Below are positions 23,770 to 30,402 of a DNA stretch of 47,690 nucleotides, piece after piece (the first letter of the stretch is position 1; every line of letters begins with the position of its first letter). This DNA is from Candidatus Limnocylindria bacterium (GTDB taxonomy: Bacteria; Chloroflexota; Limnocylindria; QHBO01). The stretch lies in assembly GCA_038322875.1 (NCBI GenBank), contig JBBQGI010000005.1, positions 1 through 47,690 on the forward strand, read 5' to 3'. Made by a program: the position numbers and the translations under genes. Under the pieces are notes generated by a model, which searched no databases, was not told where the DNA came from, and saw only the letters and a program-made list of their open reading frames with translations.

Positions 23770-24237
23770 CTACTCGATGCGCAGTAGCGGCGTCCCCACG
23801 GCGACCGGCTGACCCGCCACCACGGTCACCGATGCGACCCTCCCGGCGCGCGGCGCGCGCACTTCGTTCTGCATCTTCATGGCCTCGATCGTGAGCAGCC
23901 CGTCGCCCTCCGCCACCTCGTCGCCCTCCTGCACCGCGACCGCCGCCACCAGCCCGGGGAGGGTGGCGCGCACCTCCATCGGGCCTTGATGCCGGCGGGC
24001 CGAGGATTCGGCCTCGGCCAGGGCTCGCTCTCGCCAGGAGCGCGCCGTCACCGCGATCCGTCGACCGCGGAGCGTGACCACCCACTCGCTGCCGGCGCCC
24101 TCGACCAGGCACAGCTCGGAACGCGAGCCATCGCTGACCCGGGCGATCCCGGCAAGGGCGTCGAGCCAGGTGAGGGTCCACCCGGCCGCCGGCTCCACCG
24201 GCGTCCCCTCCACGCTCAGCTCGAGGTCGTCGATCAC
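23770..24237 (-). CDS. Biotin carboxyl carrier protein
   Basis: EAMKMQNE biotinylation motif. GTGA overlap with upstream gene. Confidence 0.9.
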   Translation of the reverse strand: MIDDLELSVEGTPVEPAAGWTLTWLDALAGIARVSDGSRSELCLVEGAGSEWVVTLRGRRIAVTARSWRERALAEAESSARRHQGPMEVRATLPGLVAAVAVQEGDEVAEGDGLLTIEAMKMQNEVRAPRAGRVASVTVVAGQPVAVGTPLLRIE

Positions 24238-25832
24238 CGCGGTCGCCGCCGTGTGACAGCGTCCTGACGTGCGCGTGCCGCCCAGGCGCGGTCGTGGGAC
24301 GGGGTTGCGCGGGTGCCGGTGGCGACCACCGACCTGGCCCGTGACTGTTCGCGTGCCTGGAGGGCGATCGCGGCCGCCAGCAAGGCCTCTTCGCTGCTCA
24401 GCTTCGGGCCGCTCCCCCACCGATCCGGGATCAGCGCCGTGTCATACGAGCCGGCGGCGAAGCCCGGCTCATCGACCAGCCAGCGCAGGAACGAGAGATC
24501 CGTCTGGACGCCTCCGATGAGCGTCTCGCCGAGCGCGCGCGCCAGGCGGGCAATGGCGGCCGGACGATCCTCGGCGTGGACCAGCAGCTTGGCGAGCAGC
24601 GGGTCATATTCCACCGGCAGAACCGTGTCGCCCGCCAGCCCGGTGTCGATCCGGACGCCCGGCCCGGCGGCCATCTGCCACCCGGTGACCATGCCCGCCA
24701 CCGGCCGAAAGCCGTCATGAGGGTCCTCGGCATAGATCCGCACCTCGATGGCATGACCGCGTGGAGCGGCCCCCAGGACCTCCTCCGGCAGCCGTTCCCC
24801 CGCCGCGATGCGGATCTGCCACCCAACCAAATCGATGCCGGTCACGAGCTCGGTGACGCCGTGCTCTACCTGGAGGCGGGTGTTCATCTCGAGGAAGAAA
24901 TGGTTCCCGTCGCCGTCGAGCAGGAACTCGACCGTCGCGGCGCTGTGGAAGGCGACCGTCCCTGCGACGCGACGCGCGCTGTCGGCGAGCCGGGCTCGGA
25001 GGTCCGGCGTCACCGCCGGCGATGGCGACTCCTCGACCAGCTTCTGGTGACGCCGTTGGACGCTGCATTCGCGCTCGCCCAGGACCGCCAGGTTGCCGTG
25101 CCGGTCGCCGAGCAGCTGGACCTCGATGTGGCGTGCCGGAGCAATCAGTCGCTCGAGATAGATGGTCCCATCGCCAAAGGCGGCAAGCGCCTCTCGGGCG
25201 GCGGCCTCGAGCGACGTCCGTACCTGCTCCGGCCGGTCGACCCGGCGCATGCCGCGCCCGCCGCCGCCCGCCGCCGCCTTCAGCATCGCCGGAAAGCCGA
25301 TCGCCGCGACCCTATCGTCGAGGGGCGCGCCGTCCCCAACCATGGTCAGGGGGACGAGCAGTCCCGGGACGATTGGCACGCCCACGGCGCCGACGCTTAC
25401 CCGGGCGGCCAGCTTGTCGCCGAGGGAGGCGAGCGTCGCCGGGGGCGGACCGATGAAGACGAGCCCCGCCTCCTCGACCGCCCGGGCGAAGGCGGCATTC
25501 TCCGAGAGGAACCCGTAGCCGGGATGGATCGCCTCGGCGCCCGAGCGCTGCGCGGCATCGATCACTGCGGTGATGGAGAGGTAGGAATCGGCCGCCTGCG
25601 CCGGGCCGATTCGCTCCGCCCGATCGGCCGTGGCGGCGTGCATGGCATCAGCGTCAGCATCGCTGTAGACCGCCACCGATTCGATCCCCAGTTCGCGACA
25701 AGCCCTGATGATTCGCACCGCGATCTCGCCGCGGTTGGCAATCAGGAGCCGCCGAAAGGGCGGGCGCCGCGCATCGGCAGCGCTTCCGTCTTTGCGCAAA
25801 GACGGAGCATCCTCAGAGCGGGATGTTGCCAT
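24234..25832 (-). CDS. Biotin carboxylase subunit (acetyl/propionyl-CoA carboxylase)
   Basis: [53 protein letters not shown]. Confidence 0.95.
25788..25803. promoter_or_regulatory. Candidate parS site 1 (perfect palindrome)
   Basis: GTCTTTGCGCAAAGAC; the palindrome extends to 22 bp (25785-25806). Confidence 0.65.
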
Positions 25833-27363
25833 GCTTCCTGGCGGGTACCGACTGGCGCTTTCCCTCGAGCATCGCCAATGCATCGACGACGCGAGCGCGC
25901 GTCTCCGACGGCAGGATCACCTCGTCCACGTAGCCGCGGGCGGCAGCGATGTACGGGTTCGCGAAACGCGCCTCGTACTCGGCAACCAGTCGCGCGCGTT
26001 CCTCATCGGGTGCCTTGGACTCGGCGATGCGATCGCGGAAGATGATGTTGACCGCGCCTTCGACGCCCATCACCGCGATCTCGGCCGTCGGCCACGCGAA
26101 GTTGAGATCGCCGCGCACGTGCTTGCTGCTCATGACGTCGTATGCGCCGCCGTATGCCTTGCGGGTGATAACCGTCACTTTCGGTACGGTCGCTTCGCAA
26201 TACGCGTAGAGCAGCTTCGCGCCGTGACGAATGATTCCGCGATGTTCCTGGTCGACACCAGGCAGAAAACCGGGAACGTCGACCAGTGTCACGAGCGGAA
26301 TGTTGAAGCAGTCGCAGAAACGGACGAAGCGCGCCGCCTTGTCGGACGCGTCGATGTCGAGCACGCCGGCGAGAACCTCGGGCTGCTGCCCCACGATTCC
26401 GACACTGCGCCCCTCGATGCGCGCGAGGCCACAGATGATGTTGCGCGCGAAGTGGGCATGCACCTCGGTAAAAGAACCGGCGTCGACGATCCCGCCGATG
26501 ACTCGATGCATGTCGTATGAACGCTGCGCTGAATCGGGCACCAGCTCATCGAGCTCCGCTGGCGTCACCCCGGGTGCTTCCCACTCGGTCGCGGTCGGTG
26601 GCAGATCGACGTTGTTCTGCGGCAGGAAGGCGACGATCTGCCGCGTGAGCGCCATTGCCTGCGGCTCACCGTCCGCCAGGAAATGCGCGACCCCGCTCAC
26701 CTCGTTGTGGATGCGCGCGCCGCCCAGCCCTTCGAAATCGATCTCCTCGTGCGTCACCGTCTTCACCACGTTGGGGCCGGTGACGAACATGTAGCTGCTA
26801 CCGTCGACCATCACCGTGAAGTCGGTGATCGCTGGCGAGTAGACCGCCCCGCCCGCGCATGGCCCCATCACCACCGAGATTTGCGGCACGACTCCGGAGG
26901 CCATCGTGTTGCGCAGGAAGATATCGGCATAGCCGCCCAGGGAAGCGACCCCTTCCTGGATTCGTGCGCCGCCCGAATCCGAAAGGCCGATGATCGGTGC
27001 GCCGGTATCCATCGCCAGGTCCATCACCTTGCAGATCTTCTCCGCATGCGCCTCCGACAGCGATCCCCCGAAGACCGTGAAGTCCTGGGCGTAGACGAAG
27101 ACGAGCCGCCCGTCGATTCGCCCGTGGCCGCTGACCACGCCGTCTCCAAGAACGAGCTGCTCGTCCAGTCCAAAGTCGGTGGCCCGATGGGTGACGAAGG
27201 CATCGAGCTCAACGAACGAGTCCTCGTCGAGGAGCAGCTCGAGCCGTTCGCGTGCCGTCAGCTTGTTCCGCTCGTGCTGCTGCGCTATCCGCTGAGCGCC
27301 GCCGCCCAGCTTCGCCTCGTCACGGAGCTTTCGGAGGTGCGCGAGCTTATCGGCCGTCGACAC
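25813..27363 (-). CDS. pccB: Acyl-CoA (propionyl-CoA) carboxylase carboxyltransferase subunit
   Basis: [66 protein letters not shown]. Confidence 0.93.
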
Positions 27364-27381
27364 GAGCGTCCTCCGCGCTGG

Positions 27382-27457
27382 TGGTGGGCCCAGCAGGGAT
27401 CGAACCTGCGACCCGCCGGTTATGAGCCGGATGCTCTAACCACTGAGCTATGGGCCC
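27382..27457 (-). tRNA. tRNA-Ile2 (CAT anticodon, lysidine type)
   Basis: GGGCCCATAGCTCAGTGGTTAGAGCATCCGGCTCATAACCGGCGGGTCGCAGGTTCGATCCCTGCTGGGCCCACCA: 76-nt cloverleaf with encoded CCA. Lacks initiator features; acceptor stem resembles Ile2. Confidence 0.9.
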
Positions 27458-27491
27458 GATGGATGGTGGACAACTTCGAGTATAGAGGCTC

Positions 27492-27507
27492 GTCTTTGCA
27501 CAAAGAC
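27492..27507. promoter_or_regulatory. Candidate parS site 2
   Basis: GTCTTTGCACAAAGAC, one mismatch to site 1, intergenic upstream of parA. Confidence 0.65.
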
Positions 27508-27525
27508 ATCGACATCGAGCCAGCT

Positions 27526-27534
27526 TGTGGATAA
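27526..27534 (-). promoter_or_regulatory. Perfect DnaA box
   Basis: TGTGGATAA on plus strand = TTATCCACA on minus strand. Confidence 0.55.
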
Positions 27535-27626
27535 CTCCGATGGTCGCCGGCGACCGGTGGCGGGTATGATCGATCGGTCGCCGACGCGACGCTCCATTCC
27601 CCGCCCTTGCCGCGCTAGGTGATCAT

Positions 27627-28394
27627 GTGACCAAGGTAATCTCGATTGCGAACCAGAAAGGCGGCGTCGGCAAGACGACCGCGTCGATCAATCTCGGCGG
27701 CGCACTGGCCGAGTTGGGGTATCGGGTTCTCTGCGTCGACATGGATCCGCAGGCCAACCTCACCGTCGGACTGGGCATCAGCCTCTCCGATGTCCACCAC
27801 TCGATGGCCGACGTCCTCTCCGAGGATCGCGTCCCGCTCGACGAAGTGGTTCGCCAGACCGAGATGCCGGGCTTGTCGGTGGCGCCCTCAACCCTGGAGC
27901 TGGCATCCACCGAGGTGGAGCTCTTCACCGCCATCGGTCGCGAGATGGTGCTGCGCGACACGCTGGCCGGATGGGCTGAACAGCAGTACGACGTCGTCAT
28001 CATCGACTCCCCGCCGACCCTCGGCCTGCTCACCATCAACGCGCTGGTCGCCAGCTCGCGCGTGATCATCCCGGTCCAGACGCAGTACTACGCCATCAAG
28101 GGCCTGACCGCGCTGATCAAGGTGATCAACACCATCAAGCTGAAGCTGAACCACGACCTCGAGATCCTGGGCCTGCTCGCCACCTTTTACGACGGGCGCA
28201 CCGTGTTGGCGCGCGAGATGCTCCAGAACCTCCGCGAGCTCGGCGATCATCGGGTCTTCACGACCATGATCAAGAACACCGTCAAGTTTGGCGAGGCTCC
28301 CCTCACCGGCAAGCCGATCACCGAGTACGCCACCAACTCGGCTGCAGCCCGCTCGTTCCGCGAGCTGGCCCGCGAGGTGATCGAACTTGGCTAG
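27627..28394 (+). CDS. parA: ParA/Soj family ATPase
   Basis: IANQKGGVGKTT, DMDPQANLT, IIDSPPTLG, IPVQTQYYA. Confidence 0.95.
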   Translation: MTKVISIANQKGGVGKTTASINLGGALAELGYRVLCVDMDPQANLTVGLGISLSDVHHSMADVLSEDRVPLDEVVRQTEMPGLSVAPSTLELASTEVELFTAIGREMVLRDTLAGWAEQQYDVVIIDSPPTLGLLTINALVASSRVIIPVQTQYYAIKGLTALIKVINTIKLKLNHDLEILGLLATFYDGRTVLAREMLQNLRELGDHRVFTTMIKNTVKFGEAPLTGKPITEYATNSAAARSFRELAREVIELG

Positions 28395-29358
28395 CAAGCG
28401 CCCGGTCTTCAGCGAGAACATCCATCGGCTCTTTGACGAGGCCCAGGCGATCGACCTGGCGCCCGGCATCGTGTCGCTCATCGAGTCGCGTGCCACGCGG
28501 GCGCAGATCCGCGAGGTCCCGGTCGGCCGCATCCTGCCGAATCCCGCGCAGCCGCGCCTCTCGTACGAGGAGGACTCCCTTACCGAGCTCGCCGACTCGA
28601 TCCGCGAGCACGGCGTCCTGCAGCCCATCCTCGTCCGCCCGGTGGGCAGCCAGTACGAGCTGATCGCCGGCGAGCGCCGCTGGCGCGCATCGCGCATGGC
28701 CCAGCGAGAATCGATTCCGGCGATCGTGGTCGAGTTCGACGACGAGACCGCACTCGAAGTGTCGATCATCGAGAACCTGCAGCGGGAGGATGTCTCACCG
28801 CTCGAGGAGGCGTCGATGTTCCGCAAGATGACGGACCTCGGCTACTCGGTGCGACAGCTGGCCCAGAAGATCGGCAAGGACAAGGGCTATGTGGAGAATC
28901 GGATCCGCCTGGCCGACGCCCCGCCCGAGATCCGCGAACTGGTGTCCGTGCGCAAAGACACCCTCAGCCATGCGTATGAGCTGATGAAGGTTCGCGACGA
29001 GCGAACCAGGAAGCGTCTCGCCAAGAAAGTGGCTGCAGGTGAGCTGACCCTCGCCCGATTGCGCGCCATCACGGGCGGCGCCCCGGCGGAGCCGCACGAC
29101 CCGGCCAAGCCGAAGCGCCGCGCGAAGACGGTGGCGGGACAGGTGGCCGCCGCCCGCCAGACCGACGATGCGCTGGTCAACAACCGTGCCCGGCTGGCCG
29201 GTGCGGTCGATGAGCTGGTCGAGCTGCTCAGCCAACGCGAGCTGATCGACGAGATCCCGGACACCAACCGGGACAACCTGGCCCGGTACCTGACCGTGAC
29301 CAAGCTGAAGCTCGAGAACGCGATCGCGATCATCCGCGCCACCCGCGAAGGCGCCTAG
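28387..29358 (+). CDS. parB: ParB/Spo0J family partition protein
   Basis: PNPAQPR, ELADSIREHGVLQPILVRP, AGERRWRA, IIENLQRED, HTH. TTG start overlaps the parA end. Confidence 0.93.
   Translation: MASKRPVFSENIHRLFDEAQAIDLAPGIVSLIESRATRAQIREVPVGRILPNPAQPRLSYEEDSLTELADSIREHGVLQPILVRPVGSQYELIAGERRWRASRMAQRESIPAIVVEFDDETALEVSIIENLQREDVSPLEEASMFRKMTDLGYSVRQLAQKIGKDKGYVENRIRLADAPPEIRELVSVRKDTLSHAYELMKVRDERTRKRLAKKVAAGELTLARLRAITGGAPAEPHDPAKPKRRAKTVAGQVAAARQTDDALVNNRARLAGAVDELVELLSQRELIDEIPDTNRDNLARYLTVTKLKLENAIAIIRATREGA
28944..28959. promoter_or_regulatory. Candidate parS site 3 (inside parB)
   Basis: GTCCGTGCGCAAAGAC (two mismatches), flanked by complementary GGT/ACC. Confidence 0.55.
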
Positions 29359-29373
29359 CCTCCGGCAACGGGC

Positions 29374-29730
29374 TCAGGGGGTGTAGCTCATCACCTCGCG
29401 TTGGCCGACCAGGAACCCGACCAGCTTGCGCCGCGCGTCCGGGTCTATCTTCCGCAGGCCGGCGATGACCCGGGGAAGCTCAAAGATGGGGGCGGCGAGC
29501 GCCCCCGCGGTATCGATCCCCACCACGTGGTCCGGTCCCCCGCCGACCAGGAAGACACGCTGGAAGGACTTCGCGTCGAGGCCGGCGACCGCGCAGAACG
29601 CGGCGATCGCGGTGCCGACACCCCTGCGCTTGGCGAAGTCGATGAAGAGATCGGACGCCCAGGTATCGACCTGCTGGTCGGTCTGGGCCTCCACCATGGT
29701 CCGATACGTGCGCTCCTCGGTCGCGCTCAC
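29374..29730 (-). CDS. Hypothetical protein (118 aa)
   Basis: GGAGG SD before GTG at 29730; upstream TAGAAT; globular-looking sequence (DLFIDFAKRRGVG...FLVGGGPDHVVGID). Confidence 0.75.
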   Translation of the reverse strand: MSATEERTYRTMVEAQTDQQVDTWASDLFIDFAKRRGVGTAIAAFCAVAGLDAKSFQRVFLVGGGPDHVVGIDTAGALAAPIFELPRVIAGLRKIDPDARRKLVGFLVGQREVMSYTP

Positions 29731-29838
29731 CCGAGTCCTCCGTGGGGCAATTGGCGACCCGATTCTACCCAAGCGGGACGCGTACAGGCTGCGCTGATCC
29801 GCCTTCGACGGCTCACACGCATCGGCTATCCTGCGGCC

Positions 29839-30402
29839 GTGATCGACCCCATCGCCCGGCTGCGGACCGAGGACACGATCGTCTACGAGCTGTTGCGTGG
29901 GCGCCAGGGCGGTGACGGAGGTGAGGTCGTCGGCGTCGCAACCTTCCGCGACGGCGGGACTCGGGTCGACGCTCCCGAGGCGATCGCGGTGGCGGTCGAG
30001 GAACTCCTCTCGCGGCCCTTCGTCGACCGCATCCAGGCCGCTGAGCGACCCCGTGGCTACCGGCGCAGTGGCAGCGGGCAGGTTGACATGCTCGTCCCGG
30101 GGATGCCCGAGCATTTCCTGGCCCGGATGCGCGGCCTGTGGCTCGCCTACCCCGACGGGACCCTGATCACCGCGCGCCCGTCCTCGGGCCAACCACCGGT
30201 AGCCGGCCCCCGCCCCGCGGCACCCGACCTGACCGAAGCCGAGCCGCCGGTCACCGATCCCTCGGTGCGCCGCGCCACCTTGGCCGACAGCCACGAGACC
30301 CTGGGGGCCGGACCGCTGGTCCGCGCCAACGAACCGATCACCGGCCTGCGGCCGACCGACCACCGCCCGGTCGCTCGGACCGATTGTGGCTGGCTGGTCT
30401 AG
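29839..30402 (+). CDS. Hypothetical protein (187 aa)
   Basis: GTG 6 nt after TATCCT; genome-typical codon usage. Confidence 0.7.
   Translation: MIDPIARLRTEDTIVYELLRGRQGGDGGEVVGVATFRDGGTRVDAPEAIAVAVEELLSRPFVDRIQAAERPRGYRRSGSGQVDMLVPGMPEHFLARMRGLWLAYPDGTLITARPSSGQPPVAGPRPAAPDLTEAEPPVTDPSVRRATLADSHETLGAGPLVRANEPITGLRPTDHRPVARTDCGWLV

Follow-up and report, generated by a model that had tools for sequence, protein, structure and literature searches.

A candidate second chromosomal ParABS system with a putative non-canonical parS in Candidatus Limnocylindria

Does the chromosome of Candidatus Limnocylindria carry a second partition system with a centromere of its own? The question is raised by a parA-parB gene pair, here called parA2 and parB2 (together parAB2), and by three copies of a 16-bp palindrome, GTCTTTGCGCAAAGAC, that lie in and near this pair on a 47,690-nucleotide stretch of DNA (hereafter the window), which is the entire contig JBBQGI010000005.1 (C5) of the assembly GCA_038322875.1. 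This source assembly (G000) contains 2,042,593 bases in 254 contigs, has a G+C content of 69%, and is 90.6% complete. From comparisons of sequences within this assembly and across related genomes, we consider it likely (a probability of roughly 0.7) that parA2-parB2 and the three palindromes make up a second, orthogonal chromosomal ParABS with a new candidate parS. The features on which this proposal rests are the following.

parA2: 27627-28394, plus strand; 255 aa, Walker-type ParA ATPase (Pfam AAA_31, 1.7e-59; CbiA, 2.2e-26).
parB2: 28387-29358, plus strand; 323 aa, ParB/Spo0J-type protein (Pfam ParB_N, 1.5e-33; HTH_ParB, 8e-16).
Candidate parS2 site 1: 25788-25803, no strand; core GTCTTTGCGCAAAGAC, 0 mismatches, with a perfect palindrome that spans 22 bp (25785-25806).
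Candidate parS2 site 2: 27492-27507, no strand; GTCTTTGCACAAAGAC, 1 mismatch, in the non-coding tRNA-Met/parA2 divergent intergenic region, 120 bp 5' of the parA2 start at 27627.
Candidate parS2 site 3: 28944-28959, no strand; GTCCGTGCGCAAAGAC, 2 mismatches, within parB2 over codons V186-S-V-R-K-D191.

Rarity of the palindrome

The motif consists of the arms GTCTTT and AAAGAC around a GC/GC centre, giving the core TGCGCA, and its three copies together span ∼3.2 kb. A sequence scan confirmed what an earlier inspection of the window (the sequence-only reading) had reported of these copies, namely their positions, their 0, 1, and 2 mismatches, and the 22-bp extension of the first one. When up to 3 mismatches were allowed, the window contained 3 matches, compared with a mean of 0.11 in shuffled sequences, and none of 100 shuffles attained 3. 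The same three sites are the only matches at ≤3 mismatches in the whole assembly, in which 30 composition-matched control palindromes had a mean of 0.13 matches at 0-2 mismatches. A palindrome that is present in few copies, is clustered at and inside parAB, and is otherwise absent from the genome has the distribution of a parS, and this distribution was found in the genome scans of families f1 and f3 described below.

More distant copies of the motif were also rarer in G000 than the means of the control palindromes (0 vs 3.07 at exactly 3 mismatches, 19 vs 38 at 4, and 201 vs 320 at 5). This scarcity may reflect avoidance of off-target sites.

Conservation of the sites at parAB2

In the following, f1 is the family of the window, f2-f5 are further families of the class, and the genus is that of the window. 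Conservation was analyzed at 80 related loci whose ParB2 is 74-93% identical to that of the window, with a match defined as ≤3 mismatches at the expected position and with the loci that cover this position as denominator. Site 1 was kept at 63 of 63 loci, site 2 at 71 of 72, and site 3 at 76 of 80, and there were only 5 further matches beyond the expected positions in the 813 kb of flanks examined. The median dN/dS (ratio of nonsynonymous to synonymous divergence) relative to the window was 0.16 for parB2 (79 pairs, dS 0.78) and 0.11 for parA2 (74 pairs, dS 0.66). Because the median dS to the window is 0.66-0.78, neutral DNA would not have remained as constant as these sites. In an alignment of 74 distinct tRNA-Met/parA2 intergenic sequences, the palindrome is among the few islands conserved at ≥95%, and its flanks vary.

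The parA2-upstream and intragenic sites were present at 20 of 20 genus loci and at 4 of 4 f3 loci, at which ParB2 identity is 49-61%. When wider flanks were analyzed, 7 of 7 f3 loci contained 2-5 sites, and the parA2-upstream and intragenic sites were found at all 7. Among 21 further f1/f3 loci, 19 contained both sites and 2 contained one. Scans of whole genomes at ≤2 mismatches identified exactly 3 sites in each of five same-genus genomes, all of them at the locus (a reversed-motif control gave 0), and, likewise confined to the locus, 2-3 sites each in a closed f1-type chromosome and in four f3 genomes. The sequence-only reading had stated that a motif scattered at promoters genome-wide, or one not conserved near orthologous parAB, would speak against a centromere. 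There was no such scattering in G000 and ten f1/f3 relatives, where the motif occurs only at the locus; conservation near orthologous parAB was found in f1 and f3, but f2, f4, and f5 have no adjacent site.

Site 1 is also present in the f3 genomes that retain the pccB/accC gene pair (L146, L147, and L148). Three other f3 genomes (G034, G036, and G038) lack pccB/accC beside parAB2, yet have kept the parA2-upstream and intragenic sites. Since these three genomes keep the sites without the carboxylase genes, the motif tracks parAB2 and not the pcc genes.

The codons in site 3 provide an independent view of this constraint. The Lys codon within site 3 is AAA at 60 of 74 loci, compared with 4.2% of the other parB2 Lys codons and 5.1% of Lys codons genome-wide, and the Asp codon within the site is GAC at 79 of 79 loci. 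The AAA bias at the site 3 Lys argues for selection on the DNA itself inside parB2. The claim that coding copies of the motif use rare codons was thereby upheld for site 3; site 1 instead sits at a gene junction, where its TTG is a likely start codon (see below). A difference between S-x-R-K-D in f1/f3 and A-x-R-Y-D in f2 was considered as covariation of ParB2 with the motif, and it was dropped as evidence because it lies in the site 3 codons, so that the embedded site may cause it rather than specificity.

Properties of ParA2 and ParB2

ParA2 contains the Walker A sequence KGGVGKT at residues 11-17, has the fold family of ParA proteins, and is encoded in an operon 5' of parB2, with which its gene overlaps by 8 bases; it is small and is without an N-terminal helix-turn-helix (HTH). 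ParB2 scored 150.1 bits against TIGR00180 (cut-off, 58.45), and both its N-terminal, cytidine triphosphate (CTP)-binding domain and its central HTH domain are those of the ParB family. The ParB_N motifs GERR (residues 95-98) and ENLQRED (residues 129-135) are invariant in 26 ParB2 sequences and align with those of Thermus Spo0J and Noc. Among solved relatives of ParB2, Thermus Spo0J was the best match (7e-44), Noc and B. subtilis ParB were also found, and KorB was far weaker (5e-14).

An AlphaFold model of ParB2, built on 26 family sequences, had a mean predicted local distance difference test score (pLDDT) of 77.9, with values of 84-93 over residues 41-230 and a disordered N-terminus and linker. 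In the model, the C-terminus, where ParB proteins have their dimerization domain, consists of two long helices (residues 249-282 and 292-322) that form a helical hairpin after the linker, a part that has no sequence similarity to the canonical ParB of this assembly (ParB1, described below). The Foldseek matches of the model, at 1e-15 to 1e-13, included structures of ParB-CDP, of Noc, and of Caulobacter ParB-parS. Its domains, its motifs, and its fold all identify ParB2 as a CTPase clamp of the ParB type, with a predicted CTP function.

How might such a protein recognize a palindrome other than parS? According to Jalal et al. (PMC7383237), four interface positions (Caulobacter ParB 173, 179, 184, and 201) decide between specificity for parS and for the Noc-binding site NBS (RTAG vs QKKR), and R173 is invariable among parS-specific variants. 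In our alignments, the equivalent positions of ParB2 are K166/R172/D177/S194, and those of ParB1, Thermus Spo0J, and Noc are R/S/D/G, R/A/Q/G, and Q/K/K/R, respectively. Canonical parS binders share the pattern R/x/x/G. By position 173, ParB2 is not a canonical parS-type binder, having K166 instead of R, and the N-terminal GLGRGL of canonical ParB is replaced in ParB2 by PGIVSL. Across the 26 ParB2 sequences, which represent all five families, K166 and R172 are invariant and S194 is ≥90% conserved, a pattern that fits one shared non-canonical ParB2 specificity. The identity of ParA2 to ParA1 is 44%, and that of ParB2 to ParB1 is 41% across the N-terminal and HTH domains, the C-terminal parts being unalignable.

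The sequence-only reading had also suggested that the system may act as a second anchoring or Noc-like one. In a Noc-like role, ParB2 would serve as a nucleoid-occlusion or membrane-tethering factor. Like Noc, ParB2 is a lineage-specific ParB paralogue that exists beside a canonical ParB, is associated with a different 16-bp palindrome, and has changes at the same four interface positions; the Noc model is its best NCBIfam match by E-value (1.2e-55), and Noc structures are among its best matches. It also has a family-conserved basic and aromatic N-terminal stretch, which is somewhat like the membrane helix of Noc. Whereas Noc works without a ParA partner and at many dispersed sites, ParB2 has ParA2 and 1-5 clustered sites per genome. 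In addition, ParB2 scored 188.7 against the Noc model TIGR04285, under the cut-off of 315 and under the 226.9 of canonical ParB1, and its specificity residues are K/R/D/S, not QKKR. A Noc-like function is very improbable, and this part of the sequence-only reading was not supported.

Distribution of ParB2

ParB2-type genes (E ≤ 2.4e-68) were identified in 36 of 40 relatives, comprising 20 of 24 from the genus and 16 of 16 from the four other families; the 4 genomes without one are 62-83% complete. Two unpublished genomes (G017 and G019) supply 2 of the 20 genus loci (L007 and L005) and 2 of the 36 ParB2-positive relatives, and without them these counts become 18 of 18 and 34 of 38; none of our conclusions depends on these two genomes alone. 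When a phylum-wide sample was analyzed at E ≤ 1e-45, ParB2 was found in 33 of 33 genomes of the class (15 of 15 in f1, 16 of 16 in f3, and 2 of 2 in f4), compared with 1 of 267 other Chloroflexota, a weak match (4e-47). Close relatives of ParB2 come from metagenome-assembled genomes (MAGs), mostly those of Chloroflexota, Chloroflexia, or Candidatus Limnocylindria. A separate search for homologous proteins yielded only relatives with at least 90% identity. Plasmid records contained no close relative, the best match being 41% identical over 69% of the protein. We conclude that ParB2 is class-specific and vertically kept.

Short contigs that encode ParB2 at 76-91% identity were also seen in MAGs of Steroidobacteraceae, Methylomirabilota, Sphingomicrobium, Zixiibacteriota, Dormiibacterota, and Angelobacter. 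These contigs are probably mis-binned Limnocylindria.

A canonical ParABS elsewhere on the chromosome

The assembly contains two ParB_N genes, and the other one, on contig C14, follows a second parA. Its product, ParB1, has the N-terminus GLGRGLDAL and a canonical recognition helix. As the sequence-only reading had noted, there is no canonical parS in the window; a degenerate canonical parS, TGTTTCACGTGAACAG, lies just 5' of the canonical parAB at C14:14209-14224 (L003) and is the sole copy in the assembly. One A of the right arm of TGTTTCACGTGAACAG is seemingly missing, and relatives have perfect or 1-2-mismatch sites at this place. The site could be genuinely degenerate or could reflect an error in the assembly. 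Nine relatives that were scanned whole at ≤2 mismatches contained 1-2 canonical parS at the canonical locus, with one extra 2-mismatch match elsewhere in G005, and the canonical par locus is ∼21-22 kb from dnaA in the relatives where dnaA was located. Because a canonical ParABS near dnaA also exists, parAB2 is truly a second system.

The distance between the two systems was determined in relatives with long contigs. In a closed relative ("chromosome: 1", 2,086,592 bp), the canonical parS is at 252,458, dnaA is at 274,952, and the motif sites are at 1,078,014 and 1,079,737, so that 826 kb (39.6% of the circle) separate the parAB2 locus from the canonical parS. Both systems are on one contig (C7) in G005, with the canonical one at 754,768 and the new sites at 1,533,638-1,536,809, and dnaA and parB2 are separated by 772 kb on a 2.24-Mb contig in G042/G076. 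In the f3 genomes G277 and G309 (∼3.1 and ∼3.8 Mb), the two loci are 1.84 and 1.39 Mb apart, respectively, on single contigs. The new locus is ∼35-41% of the chromosome distant from the origin in these relatives, in agreement with the sequence-only reading, which had placed a second system away from oriC among housekeeping genes. In 40 stretches of 20 kb (∼38% of the closed chromosome) that were sampled for gene-strand bias, genes mostly on the plus strand gave way to genes mostly on the minus strand at ∼1.35-1.37 Mb, approximately across the circle from dnaA, which puts the parAB2 locus of this one relative ∼280 kb before a terminus-like point.

A second par locus far from the origin could be what is left of a plasmid that integrated in ancient times, or of a secondary replicon that fused with the chromosome, and could persist through inertia or addiction-like effects without now contributing to chromosome organization. 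Secondary replicons typically have parS specificities of their own, 12 of the 16 positions of the motif agree with the parS of Burkholderia chromosome 2, and there is a precedent in Ralstonia pickettii 12J, in which, according to PMC5450999, a plasmid with its own parS is integrated in the chromosome. Opposed to this are the class-wide conservation of the module, its dN/dS of 0.11-0.16, the maintenance of the sites at a dS of ∼0.7, the housekeeping character of the annotated neighbours, among which there is no replication initiator or mobile-element gene, and the lack of a close relative in plasmid records. A functionless relic is, in our judgement, improbable; an ancient fusion as the origin of the module could go together with a function today and would leave the proposal of a second ParABS intact.

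Neighbouring genes and promoter elements

The genes and elements around parAB2 that bear on other roles of the palindromes are listed here.

Acyl-CoA carboxylase carboxyltransferase subunit gene (pccB/mmdA-like): 25813-27363, minus strand; Pfam Carboxyl_trans, 6e-197; TIGR01117.
Biotin carboxylase gene (accC-like): 24234-25799, minus strand; Pfam and NCBIfam profile matches.
tRNA-Met (CAT): 27382-27457, minus strand; divergent from parA2.
DnaA-box-like element TGTGGATAAC: 27526-27535, no strand; 31 nt 5' of a -10-like TATGAT (27566-27571), both ≥95% conserved in 74 sequences.

Other genes of the window encode methylmalonyl-CoA mutase, isocitrate dehydrogenase (icd), succinyl-CoA ligase (sucC), RpoD, DnaG, Mcm, and pyruvate phosphate dikinase. 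Because its genes are core or housekeeping genes, the window is core chromosome.

Site 1 is placed between the stop of the carboxyltransferase gene (25813) and the biotin carboxylase gene. A TTG within it (25799-25797, minus strand; GTG in some relatives) is the most plausible, and likely, start codon of biotin carboxylase, based on a profile alignment that begins at residue 14-15. A rival possibility is that the palindromes are targets of some other factor, or function as hairpins in RNA or DNA (in termination, attenuation, or translation control), and are close to parAB2 only incidentally. Site 1, as a 22-bp perfect palindrome over a likely start codon, could indeed form an RNA hairpin. A terminator/promoter scan, however, found no terminator-like T-tract at any of the three sites, and an Rfam scan gave no match at them, only tRNA. 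One site lies on the coding strand within the parB2 coding region, all copies in the eleven whole f1/f3 genomes (G000 and ten relatives) are at the parAB2 locus, and the motif has a parS-type architecture, while a generic hairpin would not conserve its loop and centre. We regard an unrelated factor or a hairpin as quite improbable.

Site 2 lies between two divergent promoters. It is ∼60 bp 5' of the -10-like hexamer of parA2 and does not overlap this hexamer; on the other side, a conserved TATACT is found near tRNA-Met on the minus strand (27484-27479), and site 2 would cover the -35 region of the putative tRNA-Met promoter. Because of its position between two divergent promoters, site 2 probably feeds back on transcription of parAB2 (and of tRNA-Met). 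ParB2 might even bind the palindromes mainly as a transcriptional regulator, a CTP-dependent clamp like KorB or VirB that acts on parAB2, tRNA-Met, and the acyl-CoA carboxylase operon. The conservation of both promoter-like elements around site 2 in 74 sequences, the location of site 1 in the pccB-accC operon junction, a weak match of ParB2 to the KorB domain (E 0.00059, below the cut-off), the presence of KorB among the fold matches, and the retention of ParB2 without an adjacent ParA2 in f4 are all consistent with such a regulator. On the other hand, ParB2 has a dedicated, translationally coupled ParA2 that is under purifying selection in f1, f2, f3, and f5, the sites survive where the pcc genes are absent, one site occupies the classic parS position inside the parB2 coding sequence, and site 2 is not over the -10-like hexamer. 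A mainly regulatory role is unlikely on this evidence; known ParB systems can combine autoregulation with partition.

The DnaA-box-like element TGTGGATAAC probably belongs to the parA2 promoter. With its flanking T it reads (T)GTGGATAAC (window 27525-27535), and the f3 loci L025, L026, L028, and L032 have two inverted copies of the box 5' of parA2, TTATCCACA...TGTGGATAA. Elsewhere in G000, the box recurs with the same spacing at promoter-like places (C24:2129-2168, C147:1372-1411, and C27:14345-14385). It may act as a promoter element, either dependent on DnaA or particular to this lineage, through which expression of parAB2 is tied to replication status. Because the DnaA box at 27526 is perfect, we also considered the locus as oriC. 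This origin reading was rejected because G000 contains 5 perfect boxes with no cluster of more than 2 and because the same box and spacing recur at promoter-like sites.

Two further observations concern the surroundings of parAB2. An open reading frame (ORF) of ∼108 aa (window 29374-29700, minus strand; the C-terminal part of ORF 29374-30363) is oriented convergently to parB2, matches nothing in Pfam or NCBIfam, and is syntenic 3' of parB2 in f1, f3, and f4 (34-40% identity, tblastn); it could be an accessory of the par system or be unrelated to it. An Rfam match to "Plastid-ycf2 5UTR" opposite tRNA-Met (window 27384-27457, plus strand) scored 55.1 bits, under the gathering score of 65.7, and is most likely an artefact of the tRNA sequence.

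Families without a site beside parAB2

Several observations weigh against a second ParABS with sites at parAB2, some of them from other families of the class. At the parAB2 loci of f2 (6 loci), f4 (1 locus), and f5 (1 locus), no match at ≤3 mismatches was found within ∼8 kb of parAB2. Genome-wide, at ≤2 mismatches, G039 and G032 had no match, G027 and G033 had one, and G035 had two.

These matches and some weaker ones share a single orthologous position and represent the only motif-like palindrome that recurs in f2/f5. In 7 of 8 f2/f5 genomes, this palindrome, with 1-3 mismatches, lies 10-160 bp 3' of a gene for an AddA-like UvrD-helicase/PD-(D/E)XK-nuclease; a related palindrome in the eighth shows 5 mismatches. 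Four motif matches fall within 5 kb in G035 (L191, G035:C4:1-9000; the other f2/f5 stretches are L192, L193, and L194-L198), and in two genomes (G027 and G039) the AddA-like gene shares a contig with parAB2 at a distance of 44-47 kb. The palindrome fits a relocated site, but it could also mean another role for the motif, and its placement weakens the claim that sites always adjoin parAB. It sits between convergent genes, a typical position for a terminator, which favours the hairpin explanation considered above.

Scans for 16-mer palindromes and a search with the mirrored f2 coding half-site gave no recurrent alternative palindrome beside the f2 parAB2. A conserved element 5' of f2 parA2 was also considered as a parS and rejected, as it looks like an RNA hairpin instead. 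This hairpin (for example, CGCGTGC and GCACGCG around AGCTTCC) lies 40-75 bp 5' of parA2 in f2/f5 (L135-L140 and L142) and is absent from the window; changes in its stem look compensatory, and the GGAAGC/GGAGG ribosome-binding region is complementary to its loop, GCTTCC. The hairpin may serve to control translation of parA2.

Family f4 also departs from the expected arrangement, since its ParB2 appears without an adjacent ParA2. In f4 (genomes of 1.1-1.2 Mb; L141, G032:C1:311000-323895), parB2 directly adjoins the methylmalonyl-CoA mutase gene, the locus has no parA2 match, and the motif is absent genome-wide at ≤2 mismatches. The ParB2 of f4 may be an orphan.

The remaining points are of a different kind. 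The closed relative has only 2 sites at ≤2 mismatches and is without the intragenic one. The four-residue rule derives from parS and NBS, not from the motif GTCTTTGCGCAAAGAC. Regulatory roles are conceivable for site 2, in a promoter region, and for site 1, over a likely start codon and possible RNA hairpin. Of the checks that the sequence-only reading had recommended, genome scans for the motif and for canonical parS were informative, but plain GC skew in 20 sampled 20-kb stretches of the closed relative was noise and left origin and terminus unplaced. The position of the terminus rests on sampled gene-strand bias, whose origin-side switch is not sharp. Taken with the evidence from f1 and f3, the core of the sequence-only reading, a putative cognate, non-canonical centromere for ParB2 away from oriC, is nevertheless supported by the sequence comparisons.

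Comparison with known partition systems

The sequence-only reading had likened the motif to a parS of a Burkholderia secondary chromosome. The sequence that it gave, gTTTATGCGCATAAAc, is the one listed for B. cenocepacia chromosome 2 in Table 1 of PMC7022226, and the motif shares 12 of its 16 positions, with differences at arm bases 3/14 and 5/12. PMC5450999 describes chromosomal type-I and Bsr parS as 16-bp palindromes with a T-rich arm and a 6-bp core (2C, 2G, 1A, and 1T) with a central CG. With its T-rich 5' arm, TGCGCA core, and central CG, the motif has the Bsr parS architecture. The parAB2 module further resembles Bsr ParABS as a ParA/ParB pair that is orthogonal to the canonical system of the same cell and has few sites clustered near parAB. 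This likeness is judged by the site, not by ParB phylogeny, and Bsr systems are found on separate secondary replicons of Betaproteobacteria, whereas parAB2 is on the main chromosome of a member of the Chloroflexota.

In a direct comparison, the motif is identical to the canonical parS, TGTTTCACGTGAAACA, at only 6 of 16 positions. ParB2 has the domain order, CTP-binding motifs, and fold of the canonical Soj/Spo0J-parS system, together with a small ParA that is without an N-terminal HTH and one site inside parB, but it differs in the K at the R173-equivalent position, in PGIVSL for GLGRGL, in the predicted C-terminal helical hairpin, and in a locus ∼0.8 Mb from dnaA. KorB of plasmid RK2, with its site OB, is likewise a ParB-family CTP clamp that binds a palindrome and has a ParA partner (IncC), and it is among the structural matches of ParB2. 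KorB acts chiefly as a global repressor whose sites lie at many RK2 promoters, and the sequence similarity of ParB2 to it is much weaker than to Spo0J (5e-14 vs 7e-44).

Naturally fused Vibrio cholerae chromosomes reportedly carry more than one ParABS on a single DNA molecule. A dual ParABS is also reported for the Streptomyces plasmid SCP1 (PMC13245405). Each of these likewise has more than one ParABS of distinct specificity on a single molecule, but SCP1 is a plasmid and the fused V. cholerae chromosomes are recent strain-level fusions, whereas the Limnocylindria arrangement is conserved class-wide on the main chromosome. In the open-access literature searched, we found no description of two ParABS, or of a second or additional one, on one chromosome throughout a class, no ParB paper with the motif core, and no relevant paper that links Limnocylindria and ParB. 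Among the papers on ParB paralogues in this literature, the name ParB2 reportedly always denotes a protein of a secondary replicon or plasmid.

Discussion

If parA2, parB2, and the three palindromes are a second ParABS, how might it work? By homology with studied ParBs, ParB2 dimers would recognize the 16-bp palindrome through an HTH whose specificity signature is altered. Having bound CTP, they would close to form clamps that slide onto the flanks, giving one partition complex over the ∼3.2-kb cluster. ParA2-ATP on the nucleoid would then position or segregate the ParB2 complex, which would mark a locus ∼35-41% of the chromosome from dnaA and the canonical parS, and the canonical ParAB and parS would handle the origin region. 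Binding of ParB2 to the sites, its CTP dependence, the ParA2-ParB2 interaction, and the cellular role are what we infer by analogy with these systems.

A more speculative extension, which we offer tentatively, is that Limnocylindria chromosomes are "dicentric," with a canonical ParABS at the origin and with ParA2, ParB2, and parS2 actively positioning or segregating a fixed locus at roughly three quarters of the length of one replichore. This locus might serve as a second anchoring point or loading point for structural maintenance of chromosomes (SMC) complexes, and the arrangement perhaps arose from an ancient secondary-replicon fusion at the root of the class.

If the proposal is correct, Limnocylindria would offer a natural example, extending over the class, of one chromosome with two partition systems that differ in centromere specificity, the second of them far from the origin. 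Such a class-wide dual system would make testable both the positioning of non-origin regions and the avoidance of cross-talk between two ParABS on one molecule. To our knowledge, almost nothing is known of the cell biology of this abundant, mostly uncultured class of soil Chloroflexota. Orthogonal ParB/parS pairs reportedly serve as DNA-labelling tools (PMC11798528 and PMC11109969), and a new pair that does not cross-react would be useful for this purpose. For the ParB family, the K/R/x/S signature and the TGCGCA core would represent a second natural specificity switch after that from ParB to Noc, and thus a data point for the evolution of ParB-DNA recognition.

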